DNA of 20,000 nucleotides from the NCBI GenBank assembly GCA_000934665.2, contig JYFJ02000469.1, forward strand, positions 116,555-136,554. Reading direction: 5' to 3'. Source of the stretch: Catajapyx aquilonaris (Eukaryota). How positions within the stretch are numbered: the first letter of the stretch is position 1; every line of letters starts with the position of its first letter. The position numbers and the translations under genes are program-made. A model generated the notes under the pieces. That model did not search any database. It saw only the letters and a program-made list of their open reading frames with translations, and was not told the DNA's origin. Shown here piece by piece: positions 2,280 to 20,000 of this stretch.

Positions 2280-2442
2280 GTACTGTATGGCATCACATGA
2301 TACACAGCCTTATTCCTCTCCGTATAATGTAATAAATTATCAAAAAAATTGATCAAAAATACTCTGAATAACATCTGATTCCTGTTATATAATCCAATTA
2401 TCATTATGACTTTCACCTTCTGCGAGTTTCTTGCTAAACAAA

Positions 2443-2660
2443 TTACAACCCTAAGCGTTTCAGACGCAGCCGGGTGCATTCCTCCACCGCAGGGTTGATG
2501 GAGAGCCGGACCCGGAAGAGGGCTTGCACTGGACACTTGCAGAGAGGGCAAGCGGACAGCTCCAAGCCACACCTCATCCCGAATCGGTGTGCGCAAGGCT
2601 GGAGTATCACACGCAGGTCCTCCTTCTTGCACACTGAGCATTTGTTCTCCTCTTCCTTGA
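2443..2660 (-). CDS. IAP gene terminal exon: degenerate IAP-type RING finger
   Basis: Acceptor tctgttgcag|TC; reads (I)KEEENKCSVCKKEDLRVILQPCAHRFGMRCGLELSACPLCKCPVQALFRVRLS...GL*; Cx2C-x11-CxH...C-x6-CPxC spacing as in IAP RINGs. Confidence 0.85.
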
Positions 2661-5600
2661 CTGCAACAGAATACGCAAGTTAAGCCACATTCATTATATG
2701 GCAGTGAAAACATGAACTATCATTCGCTTTCATCGCATACTGACTGGAGAAAGGGAATGATTGCACACGTTCATTACGGTGATATATGCGACTTACACTT
2801 ACTACTTTTCGGACTGGTTTCAGTCGAAGATGGAGCATCCCCAGGAGTCTCCATCGACTGGCTGCTGAAATGGAAACGTAATATTAGGCCTGTAATGTTA
2901 TAAAACAATAGGCTGACTCACCTGGCGTCATCCAGTTTCTCATTATCTCCAGCCGCTTGCTCGTCAGCAATCACCTCACCTTCAGCCTCCTGATCTACTA
3001 CCAGCTCTGTTGCCTCGCTCAGCTCCTCTGCAGCATCCACTTCCTCCGCCAGTTCTACTGCCAGTTCTTTTGCCTCGGCCAGATCCTTTTCTGCAGCCTC
3101 AACTTCCTCCCAATCTACCATGAGCAATGCCTTGGCCAGCTGCTCTGTAGCCTCAACATCCTCCCAATCTACCATGAGTATTGCCTTGGCCAGCTGCTCA
3201 GCAGCCTCAACTTCCTCTCGATCGACTGGAAGCGCTTTTGCCTCGACCAGCTCCTCTGCAGTCTCCACTTCCTTTGCCAGTTCTTTTGCCTCGGCCAGCT
3301 CCTTTTCTGCAGCCTCACCTTCCTCCCGATCTACCATGAGCTTTGCCTCGGCTAGCTCCTCTGCAGCCTCCACTTCCTCCTGATCTACCGTTGGCTTTGC
3401 CTCGGCCAGCTCCTTCTGTGCAGCCTCCACTTCCTCCTGATCTACTGTGAGCTTTGCCTCGGCCAGCTGCTCTGCATTCTCCACTTCCTCCCGATCTACT
3501 GCCATATCTTTAACCTCAGCCAGCTCCTTCTGTGCAGCCTCCACTTCCTCCTGATCTACTGTGAGCTTTGCCTGGGCCAACTCCTCCTGTGCAGCCTCAA
3601 CTTCCTCCCGATCTACCATGAGCTTTGCCTTGGCCAGCTCCTCTGCAGCCNNNCCGATCTACCATGAGCTTTATCTCGGCCAGCTCCTTCTCTGCAGCCT
3701 CCGCTTCCTCCTGAACTACTGCCAGCTCTTTTGCTTCAGCCAGCCTCTTCTCTGCAGCCTCCACTTCCTCCCGATCTACCATGAGCTTTATCTCGGCCAG
3801 CTCCTTCTCTGCAGCCTCCACTTCCTCCCGTTCCTCTTCATTCCACAGCATCTCCGCCAGGGTAGCCGCGCAATCAAACATTCTTCTCTCCTCCTCCATC
3901 CTCTTCCTCACCACCTTTCTGACCAGATCCCGCTTGAACCCCATTCCTGCAACCTTCTTCACCATGTCTGACCTCAGCCACACCTCCAGGCCCACATCTG
4001 GCATTTTATACCTCCCTCGCACATCCTTCACAAACTGCGTACCTTGAATCATTGCGACAAAGGGGCAACGAAAGTAAAAGTAGGCATGATCCTTCCAGGG
4101 ATTGTCCAATTCGTTCCAGTTGCGAAGACCGCCTCCACACCAGAAGCACTTCACGTGGTCGCCCAGCCGAGTGTAGAAGAACCCAGCTGCAGCTAGGGCT
4201 CTTGGTTTCTGAACCCTTTTCAGGGGCCAGTCACGAAAGGTGTCCAGACGGGACAGAATGTGGGTATAGCAGACAAAGCGAGGCTCCATGTGCTCTGGGG
4301 TTCTCACTACTGGAGGAGAAACATTGCTCCGGTATGGATAAACATCATGAGTAACCTTCGCTGGAAGAGGGCAAATAGGCAAGTGTGAATTTTGAACAAT
4401 TGAAAGCAATGGTAGGTACAAGCTCTTCAAAACCACTGCAGTTCCTTCCATAAGCTCACCTTTCTCCTCGGGTGTTTGCGGGTCAAGGGGTTGCACATGC
4501 TCATGCAGAAACTTCCGTTCAAATTCTGGATCCACGAGGTTGAAAAGCAGTGCGTCCCCATCCTTCAAGCCGTAACTCTTCAAGGTTTTCTTCATGTCCC
4601 TCAGCCGGATGGTGTTGTGAGTCAAATAAAAGTGTGAGGCTGGAATGAGCGACTCCGCCTCAACATAAGTCATTAGCGTTTCGAGATCTAATCCCTCATT
4701 GACTTCCAGCGTGAATGAGATGTATCTCAGGTTGGTAATCAAGATCTTCATCAACGGTTTTTCTGCAAACGAAAAGGAAAATATTCTTTAAAGAAAACAG
4801 TGACAAAGAACCCGTACACATAAAGTACATTTTTGACATGCTCTCTTGTCCTCCATCTGGAAAATATGGATGGAATTTTCGTCCCACTGCTAGTTACTGC
4901 TAAATTAACAGTACCAAGTGTTGACAATGGTACTGTTACATTGATTACTTGATACTAGTGTACGATGGACTTCAGTCTTGGTGTATGAAGGACTTCATAA
5001 GTGACTAACCCCTCGATACGTCTACAGTCATACTGAATCATAAATTATGGGAATGTCTCTTTATTTTTGCCATCACCTGTTCCAGGGCCCAGACGTCCCG
5101 ATTCAAACTGAAGCTCGTCTTCCTCCTCCTCCGAATAATCCCTGTTGCCGCACTCCCCGGTGACAAACGGGCACTTGGGAGCAGCCATCCTATGAGTCTC
5201 CATTGGGTCCTGCCCTTTGTCCCAGTCCCAGATGACATTGGAGCAAAAAGCGCATCTCACAAAGTCCTTCTGCTTCAAGTAAAAGAACCCTGCCCTGGCC
5301 AGTTCCTCAATTTCCATGTAGTCGTTAGGCCACCCTTCATACGTGCTGAGTCTTGTACACTCGTTCTTCAGCGGGTCGTACAGGGTCACCCACTTGCGGT
5401 GCTTGTCATGGGACATGTCGCAATCGGGCTGGCCACGACCAGGCGTACACCTCTTAAGCACAGGCTTGTAAGGTTGTGACACTGTGTGAGGTTTTTCTTC
5501 TTCATCCTCTTCGTCCACTTCGTCCACTTCGTCCGGTCTTACTGAAGGCCAGCAGGGTATGCCGCTGCTCCTTGCAGTTTCCGCCCGCAGTTGAGACAGC

Positions 5601-5897
5601 ATGTATGAAATTCGCATGGCCCCGTCATGCACATTGTAGGCCTCTTCATGCACATTGCGGGCCCCATCTAGGAGATCAGCCACACTGAGCCATTCCGGTC
5701 TTACGCACTCAGGAACAAGGAAGGTAGGTACTGGGGACACAGGCACAAAGAAGCAAGGTCCTAGGAGCTCAGGATTGAACTCCATCCCTATGGAGAAGCA
5801 ATTAATTAATTACAGGCCCCCCAAGTACTTTTGATGGTGATTATTTCTAAACACAAATGGTGCAAATCCTGAGCCTGTGATGGACAGTACCTTCCAT
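2443..5897 (-). CDS. Baculoviral IAP repeat-containing (IAP/BIRC-family) protein, BIR-UBL-BIR-UBA-acidic repeats-RING; join(5897..5891,5787..5077,4762..2922,2864..2803,2660..2443), ~948 aa
   Basis: All four introns are GT-AG and phase-compatible (1,1,2,1). Two BIRs with CxxC...Hx6C, an IAP-type UBA (MGF motif), a C-terminal IAP-spaced RING. The only frame break coincides with the nnn gap at 3651-3653. Confidence 0.8.
2803..2864 (-). CDS. IAP gene 62-nt linker exon (SSQSMETPGDAPSSTETSPKS), not in ORF track
   Basis: Acceptor tttccatttcag, donor A|GTAAGT; bridges the phase-2 upstream donor (AG|GTGAGT at 2921) to the phase-1 RING exon without stops. Confidence 0.75.
2922..4762 (-). CDS. IAP gene large exon: DDI1-like UBL (~4751-4542), BIR (~4268-4056), UBA (~3980-3830), acidic repeat array
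   Basis: Strong acceptor ttttccttttcgtttgcag; ORFs 3597..4754 and 2918..3619 joined across the nnn gap. BIR: RLDTFRDWP..LAAAGFFY..DHVKCFWCGGGLRNW...PWKDHAYFYFRCPFV. UBA: SDMVKKVAGMGFKRDLVRKVV. Confidence 0.85.
2960..3830 (-). repeat. Coding tandem repeat, ~15 units of ~54-63 nt (consensus REEVEAAEKELAEAKLMVD)
   Basis: Recurring + strand motif tgcagcctccacttcctcccgatctaccatgagctttgcctcggccagctcc; unit lengths vary in multiples of 3. Confidence 0.95.
3651..3653. other. Assembly gap (nnn) inside the coding repeat
   Basis: Repeat consensus predicts 11 nt (GAGGAAGTGGA), plus possibly whole units, missing here; the 3-N placeholder causes an apparent frameshift. Confidence 0.85.
5077..5787 (-). 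CDS. IAP gene exon 2: acidic DEVD-containing N-terminus and first BIR (~5371-5162)
   Basis: ORF 5045..5785; BIR: LKNECTRLSTYEGWP..ELARAGFFY...DFVRCAFC...W...DPMETHRMAAPKCPFV. Acceptor ttctccatag (5788); donor ACAG|GTGATG (5076), phase 1. Confidence 0.85.
5891..5897 (-). CDS. Probable start-codon exon of the IAP gene (ATG GAA G)
   Basis: ATGGAAG|GTACTG splices in frame to GG ATG GAG (M-E-G-M-E-F); ATG at 5785 is an alternative start. Confidence 0.45.
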
Positions 5898-5959
5898 CCT
5901 GAAGCAAGCAGACAAAGGAAATGTCAGTTGAAGCAGACAACAGCAGCGCCAGATGGTGA

Positions 5960-6190
5960 AACACGTGGGTCAGGCACACCGGGGGAAACAGCTCATTGCG
6001 ACTGCGCTGGATTCGTACGGACCAATCAGAGGGCGAGATGAACATGTTCAGACCAATCAACACGAGCCAGATGTGCAACTGACATGTTTAAACTCTATTT
6101 AAAAACTTTGGCGCCATAATTTTTTTAATTGGATTTTAAAATTTAACCCTAATTGGCCCCAACATTTACAACAAATACAAATTGATTGGT
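5960..6190 (-). promoter_or_regulatory. Putative IAP promoter (multiple CCAAT boxes, E2F-like site, E-box, Inr-like TCAGTT)
   Basis: CCAAT at 6022 and 6053; ATTGG at 6128, 6152, 6185; TTTGGCGC 6107-6114; CACGTG 5962-5967; TCAGTT on minus at 6082-6077; immediately upstream of the first coding exon. Confidence 0.45.
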
Positions 6191-6257
6191 CAGCCTATGG
6201 GACGAGATTCATGGCACAACCTGTCTTTATTCATTGAGCAGTAATTGTGGTTAAGTG

Positions 6258-8370: not shown

Positions 8371-10043
<1,673 letters not shown>

Positions 10044-16070: not shown

Positions 16071-16540
16071 CTAGAGCAGAGTTCCCTCCGGTTTCCCCCA
16101 TAACACTATTGTTGTGTACGCTCCCGAAGGAGCTGCATTGTTGAGACACTTTTCCACTTTCTCCACCGGCTCGGTGGATATAGCGACATTGACGTCTCTA
16201 AACACATTGTTCTGCTGCTTCTCCGCCTGGAGATTTTGATTGAGTTTGGCATTGGCAGCATTCTTGCTGTCCACTGTCACCACCTGCTGGTAGTGCGGCT
16301 CCTGAAGAAGCCGGTGAGACTTGGAGAAGTGGTGTTGGCGCCGCACCTCCATGGCTTTCTGGTGTCTCTTGCTGTCCTTCCGTAGCATCCGGACAGCCAG
16401 CACAACCAGCAGTATGAGAATAAAGATTCCGCAGATGGGCACAGCAATAGTAGCCGCCTTGAACCACACATCCTGTCGCAAGGCTGCGTCCTGTCCAAAG
16501 TAGGATGAACCATCATTGCTGCCGCTTCCACCTGACACAC
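16071..16540 (-). CDS. BAMBI: BAMBI terminal exon: transmembrane helix and cytoplasmic tail
   Basis: Acceptor ttgttgtttcag|GT; WFKAATIAVPI motif then hydrophobic helix; TAG at 16073-16071. Confidence 0.93.
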
Positions 16541-19431
16541 CTGAAACAACAACAATACATTAATCACAATTGAATAAAAATGGTGCGGTTCCAATACTAC
16601 AGCACATTTGCACCTGTTCTTTCCTCATAATTATGCATGGAACAGAGCACTTGGTGGAGTATCAATATTTGCCCAGACCATTCTTTGAGGGGACAAAAGG
16701 TGAGTGATGTTGATAATCTGGCGGCAGCCCATGGGCCCATTGTGTCCCATTGTGAGCCGCATTACTTCCCAATCCCAAGGATGTTTTGGGGGGCTGACAA
16801 GCCGGGGCTTCTAAAGGGGGGACGTTTCAATAAGTGGCCTTCTTGTAGGAGGCCCTTAGAGGCCATAGTCGGGCATCAAGCGCAGGTCCAATGGGCCTTG
16901 CGTGCCCGGGTGCATTAGAGCGGACGGGCGCCCCTCGAGCTGCCGGAGGGGGTCAGCCTGGGTCATTGCTTTCGGTTGCTGCTTTGCCTGCCAAGCCCCC
17001 ACGTGAAGGGCCTCACAACTAACTTGGAGGAAGAAGCAGGACAACAACAACAAAAAAAAAGTCGGGTGAAGAGGAGGAATTTTCTTCAGGTAGTTGCATG
17101 GCGCGGGGTGGTTTTGTTTCGTCCCTTTTTCAGTTTTTTTTCGCAGGCAAGTACCGGTACTGCCGCAATTTGAAGGGTCAAAGCCGTGATAACTCCTGCT
17201 GGTGTCATTTTGAGAAAGTTTACCATGTTTTCTAAAGGTGTGCTGATGCGCCGGCTATGCTAATACCTGTGGGAAAATACTAATCGCGAGGTGAATTTTT
17301 AATTACCCCGTTTGATTGCAATGCTGATGGCGTGCATGAATCCCGACTATAAATTGCAAGGATGGCCAGGTTCTTGCTCAAGGACGAGGTGTTTTTTAAG
17401 GAACAAAATGGGCCGAATCTGACTAGCCTGGGCATCAAATTGAATTATCAATTAACTCAAAAAAAATGCCTAGCGTCCTATGTTATAGGACACTTGTACT
17501 GTTATTCATTTTCTCACATGAAAACGAAAATTATGTTAAAGATTAAACAAAACAAAAAAATCTGGCATATCTGAGTTAATAAGTGGACAGATAGTTCTTT
17601 TAAAATTATTGCTGGAGTGAGCAATTAGGCAAGTGGCTACTCAATTATCAATTACAATTAGCTGAAGTGTCTATTGTGTGTGCAACATTATTGGGGCGAC
17701 ATGTTACACATTTGCTGATTTGCACCATATGTCACCACTGATAAGGTTGTGTACAATACACATTGTGGTTGATAAGAGGCTGATGCAACCTTTATGAGTG
17801 TATACGAACAAGTCTATTCCTGCACCAAGTTATCGCTGAATTATCCCCTCGTGCTTGCCTTGCACATTTTGGGGCAACCACAGGCCCGTGCAGAATGGGT
17901 CGCCCTATGCCAAATAATATTTCTGGCAGCTGCCAGACCATTTTCTGGGGGCGGACGCAACAAAACTGACAAAGGGGGGCAGTTATCGCCCGGCAGACTC
18001 GTCTCCGCCATTAGAAGGCCCGGCTAAAAGGGTCGGGGGAAGAAGATTTTTATTACCTAGTCTTGAGAAGGTGATGGCGGGTCTGTGGTGGGCCATACCC
18101 CACGGGGGGTATTTCGGCTCAAGGGGGGAAGAATCCACGGGGTTGGAGGCAAAAACCAACAGCGGATAACAAAGCGTGGTAACCCCCCCATGCCAGATGG
18201 AAATGCATCATCCCCAAGCTGCAGAAGGCCCCTGCTTGCCCTAATGGGGGTCACTTTTCGAGGTCTCATGTCAGCTCCCAGAGTGCATTCGCCTTTGGAT
18301 GGTAAAAGAAAGAAGAGGGGACCACCCCCCGGGAATGTTTACTTGCTGGAAAGACTCACCAGTGTAACTTTCGTTGAGCTTGGTCACCTGGATCCAGATC
18401 TCCAGATTGCCGCTGTAGTTGCACATGTCTTCGTTACAGCACATGAGCGAGGGACTAACTCTTGCTTTGGCATTGGGATGAGTGATGCATTCGTTGGATG
18501 GCCTGGAAGAGAAATGAATTAGTTGAATATTAATTAAGCGAGAATTACATAGTAGGGTTCTACATGTTGGACACTTGTACAATTGTGTATACAATGCAAA
18601 CAGCTAAACAACAAAATAGTGAGTTTCCAATGGAGCATCCACTTTAATGCTCATGTAATGCTCTTTTAATGTTTTTGTTGCTAAAAGCATCGAAAAAACA
18701 TTACAGGAGCATCACAAGAGCATTAACAATTGATGTTCTATGAGAAACTCAGTAGTGATGCTCTTTTAATGCTCTGATGATGCTCTTGTGGTGTTCCTGT
18801 AATGTTTTTTGATACTTTTTAGCAACCAAACATTACAAGAGCATCACAAGAGCATTTAAAATGTGTTTTTCTATGGCTGATGCTCTTTTTGACGTTAATG
18901 CTTCTTGGGGCATTTCGGTTTGCAGTGTAGTTATTGCGTTAGTTCGCCATTTGATCATTAAAAATAGATTTTTAAATTATTCGGGCATATCTGGGTTAAG
19001 GACAAAATATCGTGGGCATAAGCACACATTTCATGCAAGTCTGACAATGCGGCGCGTGATCTGCCCACGATCTACTCAAAGAGCACGGGAGTAAACAAAC
19101 TGCACAGTCCCAAGGCATTTTTTTCTTCTTCTTATACTGCACTGTCAGCATACTTGTACACATAATTACAGTCCGCCTGCTTCTAATAGCCATCCCACGT
19201 TGCAACGGTTTGATTGATTTTGGCCTTCTTTGCCAAAAGTGGCCTTGCTTCTAAGAAACCCTTGGCAACAAAATGTGATCCCTCACCTGGAGATGAGCTC
19301 GAGGCATCCATGCCTTGTTTTGCTGAGATCCGAGTGATCCACCACTTCCGAGAAGCAAGTCCCCTGGGCCGACTTGCACATGTAACCGGTGCTCACACAA
19401 GCCGGGAGGTTGCAGGAGCATCTGATGTCAC
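16071..19431 (-). CDS. BAMBI: BMP and activin membrane-bound inhibitor (BAMBI), 5'-partial; join(19431..19287,18502..18360,16540..16071)
   Basis: DIRCSCNLPACVSTGYMCKS...CFS...HGCL, CCNEDMCNY, VWFKAATIAVPICGIFILILLVVLAVRMLR match BAMBI signature motifs; splice phases 1/2/1 are consistent; no kinase domain. Confidence 0.93.
18360..18502 (-). CDS. BAMBI: BAMBI ectodomain exon with cysteine box (CCNEDMCNY)
   Basis: Acceptor catttctcttccag|G; donor G|GTGAGT at 18359. Confidence 0.9.
18592..18927. mobile_element. Non-autonomous CACT-type (EnSpm/CMC-like) DNA element in a BAMBI intron
   Basis: Ends CAATGCAAAC / GTTTGCAGTG flanked by TA; many direct and inverted copies of gagcatcacaagagcatt / gatgctcttttaatg; related copy at 6258-6387. 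Confidence 0.65.
19287..19431 (-). CDS. BAMBI: BAMBI first ectodomain exon (not in ORF track)
   Basis: cag|GT GAC ATC AGA TGC...; (G)DIRCSCNLPACVSTGYMCKSAQGTCFSEVVDHSDLSKTRHGCLELIS(R); donor AG|GTGAGG at 19286. Confidence 0.92.
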
Positions 19432-20000
19432 CTGTCGATCAACAAAGAGGTCATGAACATACACCCTCACACACAAAAAAAAAGAAATCCCAAAAGGGCT
19501 TAGTAATTAACCCGGGCTCTTTGTCACGAAGTGATCCGCTCGGAGCCGACAAGAAGAGCTCTCTAAAAGATAAACACCACCTGCGGACTGCGAAAGGAGG
19601 AGATTTCAGCAATGTAATGACTTTGCAGAAAAAAAACCCATGACCCCGCAGGTAGTCACCGAAACGAATTTTTCGGCTGAGTTAACGGTTTCATTACCCA
19701 GCAACTCAGGTGCAGTACTGTACATCGTGAAAATGCTCATTTATTACAACATGGAAAGTCAGCAACAACGTTGCACACAAAATATGTGCTTCATAGGCAT
19801 GCTGATGTGATGTTATCAACACTAAGCCCATTAGGGGTTCGTGCCAAAACTAACTTTTGAGGGGCCGTACCGTAGCGGACGTAATGTCGCAACGACTCAT
19901 TGCTGTTGCTAATGGACGTCGCAATCAACGTACCAGAAAACCGGAAGAAGGGGGTTCGTCCCCCCCCTCCTAAAGTTTGTAAGAGAGAGAGAGAGGGGGG

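Follow-up and report, generated by a model that had tools for sequence, protein, structure and literature searches.

Caspases are held in check mainly by inhibitor of apoptosis proteins (IAPs), whose accessory RING, UBA, CARD and UBC domains set the use that they make of the ubiquitin system. A ubiquitin-like domain (UBL) and a UBA domain occur in one chain in the UBL-UBA shuttle factors Rad23, Dsk2/ubiquilin and yeast Ddi1, and Parkin carries a UBL plus an E3 module. We analyzed a stretch of 20,000 nucleotides of Catajapyx aquilonaris (contig JYFJ02000469.1, positions 116,555 to 136,554), which we call the window, and in which the minus strand carries an IAP gene with a UBL between its two BIR domains. 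Judged by its sequence, this UBL is clearly of the DDI1/DDI2 type. We consider it probable that the locus is one expressed gene of the DIAP1 type, and that the UBL in its inter-BIR linker was taken over from the N-terminus of a DDI1/DDI2 gene.

Like the UBLs of DDI1 and DDI2, the window UBL has a beta-grasp, a Met start, the motifs F-x-L-x-V, E-x-E-S and Y-G-x-K-D-G-D, and a match to the DDI profile over its full length. Unlike them, it is internal to another protein, is accompanied by neither the HDD nor the retroviral protease, and is strongly diverged. With IAPs of the DIAP1 and cIAP type the gene shares two BIRs with full zinc ligands, a UBA-like domain behind the last of its BIRs and a C3HC4 RING at the C-terminus, and it departs from them in its inter-BIR UBL and in about 15 repeats of 19 residues between the UBA and the RING. 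It resembles the shuttle factors in combining a UBL and a UBA in one chain, and Parkin in combining a UBL with an E3 module; however, none of these proteins has a BIR, and binding of the window UBL to proteasomes is presumed only by analogy. The combination of UBL and UBA is described as a signature of proteasome shuttle factors in the available portions of PMC9062259 and PMC4962041. The one IAP reported to have a UBL fold is BIRC6 (BRUCE), a 4,800-residue E2/E3 in which, according to the available portion of that report, an armadillo repeat hosts the UBL, with UBA6 as its proposed binding partner (PMC10827748). As far as that portion describes it, the BIRC6 UBL is, unlike the one studied here, neither of the DDI type nor located between BIRs (PMC10827748).

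Family of the inserted domain

The 70 residues of the UBL match the Pfam ubiquitin family (PF00240) with 28.2 bits (E-value 1.7e-6) against a cut-off of 25.4 bits; on the whole 362-residue piece the score is 24.0 bits, slightly below this cut-off. An AlphaFold2 model of the UBL, for which 30 DDI UBLs served as the alignment, is a beta-grasp with a predicted local distance difference test score (pLDDT) of 93.5 and a predicted TM-score of 0.81, and Foldseek superimposes it on ubiquitin (1ubq) with a TM-score of 0.86 and a root-mean-square deviation of 1.1 Å. By Pfam cut-off and by fold, the domain is a ubiquitin-like beta-grasp. It lacks a C-terminal Gly-Gly and its chain continues into a linker, in agreement with the view of the preliminary description of this locus that it is not a cleavable ubiquitin; nor is it ubiquitin itself. 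Foldseek does not separate UBL families, its list being filled with ubiquitin entries, and an ESM Atlas search with the UBL gave only generic ubiquitin-like clusters (0.81-0.84). For a 310-residue piece comprising UBL, linker, BIR2 and UBA, the ESM Atlas search gave no usable match and an AlphaFold2 model made without an alignment had a pLDDT of 32.

Sequence searches point to one family. When the PDB was searched by phmmer with the UBL, the sole clear matches were the human DDI2 UBL 2n7d (E-value 9.6e-7) and 1v5o (6.9e-6), and the next UBL-type entries had E-values of 0.8-1.7. The depositors' name of 1v5o is '1700011N24Rik protein', which we take to be the UBL of mouse Ddi1. Among 1.84 billion representatives searched with the UBL, 103 proteins matched with an E-value of at most 0.001. 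We scanned 44 of these 103 matches with Pfam, which comprised every long match and the best of the short ones: nine carry Asp_protease and/or Ddi2_HDD, 21 consist of many UBLs in an array whose repeats add up to the score, 10 are short fragments with ubiquitin only, one is an OAS-UBL protein and three are without a ubiquitin family. A BIR was present in none of the 44. The top-ranked match, P0002, leads only by summing five weak repeats of 12-23 bits each. Among the 103, matches that form a single stretch starting at residue 1 are DDI proteins wherever there is enough sequence to tell. Source names, which cover 20 proteins, include DDI1 homolog 2 of Nematostella and of Callorhinchus and 'Protein DDI1 2' of a crab, and 'DNA damage-inducible protein 1' is the name of six of the seven members of one cluster.

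A profile made from 81 single-stretch DDI-type UBL segments scores the window UBL at 81.4 bits, with residues 1-70 aligned to 1-70; Pfam ubiquitin gives 28 bits, and a profile made from 91 poly-UBL repeats gives 55 bits. When aligned with 30 DDI N-termini, the window UBL keeps all three invariant columns (M1, E31 and E33) and eight of the 11 near-invariant ones. In a phylogenetic tree, one branch separates the DDI-type UBLs together with the window UBL from 12 poly-UBL repeats, with a support of 98 in the Shimodaira-Hasegawa-like approximate likelihood ratio test (SH-aLRT). The idea that the UBL fits the DDI1 family, which was initially based on motifs, is therefore borne out by the PDB matches, the profile and this branch; the homology search of the 70 residues found its best matches in DDI proteins and not in other UBL families. 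The domain also begins where it was said to begin, in that its Met aligns with Met1 of DDI and many matches run from 1-70 to 1-70. The domain is nearer to DDI UBLs than to other families and keeps their conserved columns, but the protein as a whole does not belong to the DDI1/DDI2 family, as neither a PF09668 protease nor an HDD follows the UBL.

We considered whether the UBL might have a source other than DDI, either as an old or independent beta-grasp that converged on DDI or because the locus is an assembly chimera. Such a source would be in keeping with the Foldseek result, in which ubiquitin comes first and 2n7d is absent among the 48 matches listed, and with the tree, which does not resolve the position of the window UBL inside the DDI clade. 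However, the sequence tests favor DDI by a wide margin, and a spliced contig that bridges BIR1 and the UBL (see below) and the unbroken frame from the UBL through BIR2 also speak against this explanation. We regard this explanation as highly improbable.

Structure and splicing of the gene

The domains are arranged in the order BIR1, UBL, BIR2, UBA-like domain, 19-residue repeats, small exon and RING (Table 1). The UBL feature at 4542..4762 lies on the minus strand at exactly the coordinates first given for it, and plus-strand translation of 4542-4762 yields only stops and no UBL. Its 70-residue peptide reads letter for letter as originally quoted, from the ATG at 4751-4749 down to 4542. Upstream, a pyrimidine-rich tract closes in cag at 4763, and the 11 nucleotides 4762-4752 separate it from the ATG. 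Downstream, a stop-free frame leads from the UBL through the linker, BIR2 and the UBA-like segment into the acidic repeat; the Pfam scan of the linker (4251..4541) gave no family match.

BIR1, at approximately 5162-5353 within an exon that gives way to the intron at 5076, matches Pfam BIR with an E-value of 2.6e-18 and has a complete C-x2-C-x16-H-x6-C. Its nearest PDB entries are cIAP1 7qgj (52 bits) and DIAP1 1sdz, 3sip and 3siq (about 50 bits). For BIR2 the nearest single-domain relative in the PDB is the DIAP1 entry 1jd4 (92.7 bits), and cIAP1 BIR entries match it as well. We take 1jd4 to be BIR2 of DIAP1, and the matches of BIR1 to be BIR1 of cIAP1 and DIAP1. The UBA-like domain matches DUF1421 with 23.7 bits against a cut-off of 22.8 bits, and UBA_BIRC2-3 with an E-value of 0.039, under the cut-off of that family; the RING matches zf-C3HC4_3 with 30.6 bits against a cut-off of 27 bits. 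Two BIRs with zinc ligands and a C-terminal RING give the gene the architecture of a DIAP1-like member of the IAP family, and on these sequence matches 'DIAP1-like' is a fair label. The placement of the UBL in the inter-BIR linker of a DIAP1-like gene, as originally proposed, thus agrees with the nearest relatives of both BIRs. Between the UBA-like domain and the RING, Tandem Repeats Finder (TRF) reports a repeat of period 57 and 14.7 copies at 3010-3830, which encodes an acidic, helix-prone unit of 19 residues. Three undetermined letters (nnn) at 3651-3653 break the reading frame in this array and leave its true copy number uncertain; the array is probably collapsed in the assembly or of uncertain length there.

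Evidence on splicing comes from the single public run that overlaps the window, here called X1, which consists of contigs from a library of unrecorded kind and which we aligned to positions 2300-6200. Its contigs contain three joints, 4762|5077, 2864|2922 and 2660|2797, all of which are GT..AG on the minus strand and coincide with splice sites predicted from the sequence. The contig with joint 4762|5077 has 181 nucleotides in the BIR1 exon and 98 in the UBL exon, and the junction between BIR1 and UBL is in frame, with a phase-1 intron and one split codon. In the spliced message the 11-nucleotide leader is translated, two nucleotides finishing the split codon and the others forming three codons; it is possibly a remnant of a DDI 5' untranslated region (5'UTR). 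Because the joints match the predicted sites, the acceptor 11 nucleotides before the ATG is real, and its use confirms that the ATG stands behind a strong acceptor, as had been read from the letters. The message encodes, in this order, BIR1, the UBL, BIR2, the UBA-like domain, the repeats, the small exon and the RING, which makes the UBL an internal domain.

Contigs of X1 cover exon 1 at 5077-5257 and 5639-5789, and the UBL exon over its first 98 nucleotides. They have no coverage in 3872-4657, where the continuity of UBL and BIR2 is that of the genome assembly. Given that the kind of run is unrecorded, the joints could in principle stem from a processed DNA copy. Compared with window positions 4665-4762, X1 record 6 has mismatches at two of 98 positions in the UBL part and at none of 181 in the BIR1 part; the source of these could be allelic variation, a paralogue or an error in the contig. 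Within the BIR1-UBL intron, the summed depth of X1 reaches 229 at 4789-4919, compared with 0-8 elsewhere, and there are many loose ends at 4866-4913. This segment looks like a dispersed repeat or a fragment of a mobile element. At 5786-5790, the start codon of the BIR1 exon is preceded by an AG at a distance of two nucleotides, and the X1 contig with its end at 5789 has three letters unmatched to the genome, which suggests a 5'UTR intron immediately ahead of this codon.

The layout of the UBL exon could also arise by fusion of neighboring genes. In that case, a gene encoding UBL, BIR, UBA and RING and starting at the ATG at 4751 would later have been joined to an upstream exon with BIR1 only; the 11 nucleotides would be its own 5'UTR after a 5'UTR intron, and the BIR1 donor would have come to use that acceptor. 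An ATG 11 nucleotides behind an acceptor is indeed the layout of a first coding exon after a 5'UTR intron, and exon 1 has a similar layout, with its AG before the ATG and the unmatched X1 letters beyond. Moreover, the unspliced BIR1 open reading frame (ORF) ends 10 codons past the donor and would make a plausible BIR-only protein. However, the 314 nucleotides between the two parts leave scant room for a promoter and a 5'UTR exon, and an in-frame junction would be a one-in-three coincidence. The order of the BIRs, a BIR1-type followed by a BIR2-type, matches a DIAP1-like gene, even though the preference shown by BIR1 is marginal (50.5 versus 47.5 bits). A fusion would still require a UBL derived from DDI, such that only the order of events would change. 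We consider a fusion unlikely, and prefer the insertion of a DDI UBL into an existing IAP gene.

Table 1. Features of the IAP gene, with positions in the window
Feature	Position	Strand	Evidence and remarks
Coding exon 1	5077..5785	-	Starts with the ATG at 5785-5783; encodes an acidic N-terminal region plus BIR1; closes with a phase-1 GT donor
Intron, 314 nt, GT..AG, phase 1	4763..5076	-	Joint 4762|5077 in an X1 contig
11-nt leader between acceptor and ATG	4752..4762	-	Sequence and frame check
DDI1/DDI2-type UBL, 70 residues	4542..4751	-	Met start; no C-terminal GG
Linker between UBL and BIR2, about 97 residues	4251..4541	-	Without intron
BIR2	4056..4250	-	Pfam BIR 3.7e-20; C-x2-C-x16-H-x6-C
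UBA-like domain, MGF loop	3837..3974	-	Pfam DUF1421 (UBA-like)
Rest of exon 2, about 15 tandem 57-nt (19-residue) repeats	2922..3836	-	TRF; donor joint 2864|2922
Small coding exon 3, 68 nt	2797..2864	-	Joints 2864|2922 and 2660|2797, in one X1 contig
Last coding exon, C3HC4 RING (approximately 2521-2652) and stop codon	2443..2660	-	Pfam; X1 record 1 covers 2300-2660

Extent of the DDI-derived piece

Where the window UBL matches DDI proteins, the alignment opens with residue 1 on either side and breaks off near residue 70-73. Pfam finds no HDD or protease sequence of DDI in the gene, and none in 103 other ORFs that were scanned, of the 119 ORFs of at least 62 codons in the window. For comparison with DDI genes we used 41 loci with a DDI-type UBL from metagenome contigs, which were scanned with the UBL alignment and onto which the DDI2 protein of Nematostella was mapped. 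Several of these loci are near-copies of each other, and the counts that follow are not independent. In 28 of the 41, similarity that starts at the ATG breaks off at residue 57-93, and a stop closes the ORF shortly afterwards; a second block of similarity lies further downstream in 19 of these 28. The other 13 are continuous, being cDNA-like or having a longer first exon. The similarity of the window to the DDI loci ends at approximately residue 72. Beyond it, in the linker, one locus of the 41 (L010) has a weak tblastn match that extends, with gaps, to residue 94, and none of the 41 has a BIR2-like segment within the fetched flanks.

In eight Nematostella-like loci (L010, L013, L017, L020, L022, L026, L027 and L031), exon 1 appears, as read from the sequence, to end at a phase-1 GT near residue 85. 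These eight also have a pyrimidine-rich ...cag 7-13 nucleotides ahead of the DDI start codon, a layout like that at the start of the window's UBL exon. We framed this as a rule, namely an acceptor at most 15 nucleotides upstream of the DDI ATG, which passes in four of 27 loci with a short exon 1. Because the rule also passes 9% of 4,926 control ATGs, it does not demonstrate a conserved 5'UTR acceptor in DDI genes.

The captured piece fits the first coding exon of many DDI genes, as judged from these loci, and it would extend from the DDI start codon to slightly beyond the beta-grasp. It was originally suggested that the UBL came from a first coding exon of DDI1 or from a retrocopy. The first of these options accords with the 28 loci above; the second is disfavored because a retrocopy should have brought more of DDI, and no HDD or protease follows the UBL. 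Exon capture into a phase-1 intron would therefore be the most likely route of arrival. A DDI exon with the 11-nucleotide leader and a phase-1 donor would be symmetric (1-1), which would suit a phase-1 intron, and the downstream junction would later have been lost or read through. If so, the locus is a case of the origin of a new multidomain gene in which the borrowed piece equals one exon of the donor and the start codon of the donor has been kept.

Age of the proposed capture

The window UBL is 33-45% identical (39% on average) to the 81 DDI-type segments, compared with a mean of 52% between the segments themselves. The highest local identity to a DDI locus is 51%, over 57 residues. In the tree, the terminal branch of the window UBL has 0.99 changes per column, approximately 4.5 times the median of 0.22. 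The place of the UBL inside the DDI group is not resolved by this tree, and constraining it with a clade that contains Nematostella was not rejected (p = 0.56 in the approximately unbiased test), where the group was named after the tree had been seen. Nucleotide likeness to foreign DDI loci amounts to 38 nucleotides at 82%, inside the coding part only. Because the UBL is strongly diverged from every DDI UBL that we found, recency is unsupported: the capture is not demonstrably recent, and these sequence comparisons lean against it. The gene had been described as a young chimera, of which the chimeric nature is upheld by the spliced joint of BIR1 and UBL, while its youth is at odds with the low identity and the long branch.

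The retained Met might seem to indicate a recent event. However, in the 677-residue DDI protein of the mussel Potamilus streckersoni (P0002), five tandem UBLs precede the HDD and the protease, and four of these five also start with Met, so a retained Met says little about age. This protein is like the window gene in that its DDI UBLs were kept internal after duplication, and differs in that it is still a DDI protein, each repeat of which scores only 12-23 bits against the window UBL. A fungal DDI protein of Acaulospora (P0006) has two UBLs. Evidently, the UBLs of DDI duplicate readily.

A recent capture from the host's own DDI1, including acceptor and 5'UTR, would have to attribute the divergence to fast evolution or to an unusual DDI of the host. 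Met1 is kept and is preceded by an acceptor and a leader, no relative with the same architecture was found in protein collections or IAP surveys, as would fit a narrow lineage, and DDI UBLs do duplicate and diverge, as in the bivalve DDI with five tandem UBLs. Against this stand the identities and the branch length given above, the weak bearing of the retained Met on age, and the lack of remaining nucleotide similarity to foreign DDI loci around the start. We regard a recent capture as improbable, and favor an acquisition of the DDI UBL that is not demonstrably recent.

Several observations weigh against the acquisition of a DDI first exon, whatever its age. Three near-invariant columns of DDI differ in the window UBL (Gly for Asp at 20, Asp for Glu at 22 and Thr for Gly at 47), and the UBL has Thr at what we take, in ubiquitin numbering, to be the position of Ile44. 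Because these positions differ, the binding properties of the UBL may be altered. The acceptor and leader are without nucleotide similarity to the foreign DDI loci, and descent from the host's own DDI gene is judged from foreign DDIs. No intron follows the UBL, such that classical exon shuffling is only half visible. Finally, likeness to the query was the criterion by which all rows for the DDI profile, for the identity statistics and for the tree were chosen, and proven DDI proteins make up only a part of the 81 'DDI-type' rows.

Possible function

In the available portion of PMC9062259, the UBL of DDI2 is described as binding both ubiquitin conjugates and 26S proteasomes; the available portion of PMC4962041 describes weak ubiquitin binding by the isolated human DDI2 UBL. 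By analogy with DDI2 and with UBL-UBA shuttle factors, the window UBL might serve to dock the ligase on 26S proteasomes, to bind ubiquitin conjugates, or both. The combination of UBL, UBA-like domain and RING would then be an E3 that ubiquitylates clients bound to its BIRs, such as caspases, and that carries them, or itself, to the proteasome. We propose only tentatively that docking on the proteasome and/or binding of ubiquitin conjugates speeds the delivery of BIR-bound clients or of the IAP. If the UBL does dock the ligase on the proteasome, then capture of the substrate, its ubiquitylation and its delivery would be joined in one chain.

Two other roles can be envisaged. The UBL and the UBA might make a regulatory contact in cis; a complex prediction of the UBL with the gene's own UBA-like segment, run without controls, gave no verdict (score 0.00) and speaks neither for nor against such a contact. 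It may also be that the UBL is only a tolerated spacer.

A more detailed scenario unites origin and function. It holds that the inter-BIR intron took up an entire first coding exon of a DDI gene, complete with 5'UTR acceptor, start codon and phase-1 donor, this exon being symmetric (1-1). The product would be an E3 ligase with a built-in proteasome-shuttle module, consisting of a DDI-type UBL and a UBA, that passes BIR-bound caspases directly on to the proteasome or competes for the docking site of DDI. We consider this full scenario doubtful. If it is true, however, whole-exon capture would make the locus a clean case of exon shuffling in which the start codon of the donor is still visible.

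Comparison with surveys of IAPs

An IAP bearing a UBL of this kind is absent from the main texts of three surveys of IAPs (PMC13159474, PMC7831173 and PMC8917759), which do not list the 19-residue repeat between UBA and RING either. The first of these covers 2,843 IAPs from 312 species in 121 architectures (PMC13159474). The listed text of its supplementary InterPro table has no ubiquitin-like entry (IPR000626, IPR029071 or PF00240), and no UBL-bearing IAP occurs in 11 of the 16 supplementary files of PMC8917759. Among the papers listed by full-text searches on IAPs or BIRs with a ubiquitin-like domain together with DDI1, or on bivalve domain architecture, none dealt with such a protein. Within these sources, a DDI-type UBL between BIRs is an unreported combination of domains, and the gene is an IAP with a new accessory domain.

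Searches for homologues of the same architecture gave a similar picture. Word-indexed searches, whose negative results are weak evidence of absence, found no homologues of the UBL with its linker among proteins of near length and none of the UBL alone among longer proteins. Scans of metagenome and viral contigs with the window's own protein, likewise limited in reach, found no relatives. The 362-residue piece had one match among longer proteins, a BIR/RING protein of Gigantopelta aegis that covers 24% of the query and aligns in the BIR only.

Neighboring genes

The genes that flank the IAP gene could anchor an analysis of synteny for dating the insertion of the UBL. At 37-1259, on the plus strand and tail to tail with the IAP gene, are the last exons of RPN6/PSMD11 (PCI and RPN6_C_helix). 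An ARF GTPase gene with four exons lies at 8371-10043 on the minus strand, and a BAMBI-like gene (BAMBI_C, 6.7e-15) at 16074-16559 on the same strand. Upstream of the latter, a cysteine-rich ORF at 19283-19438, also on the minus strand, may be the ectodomain of BAMBI.

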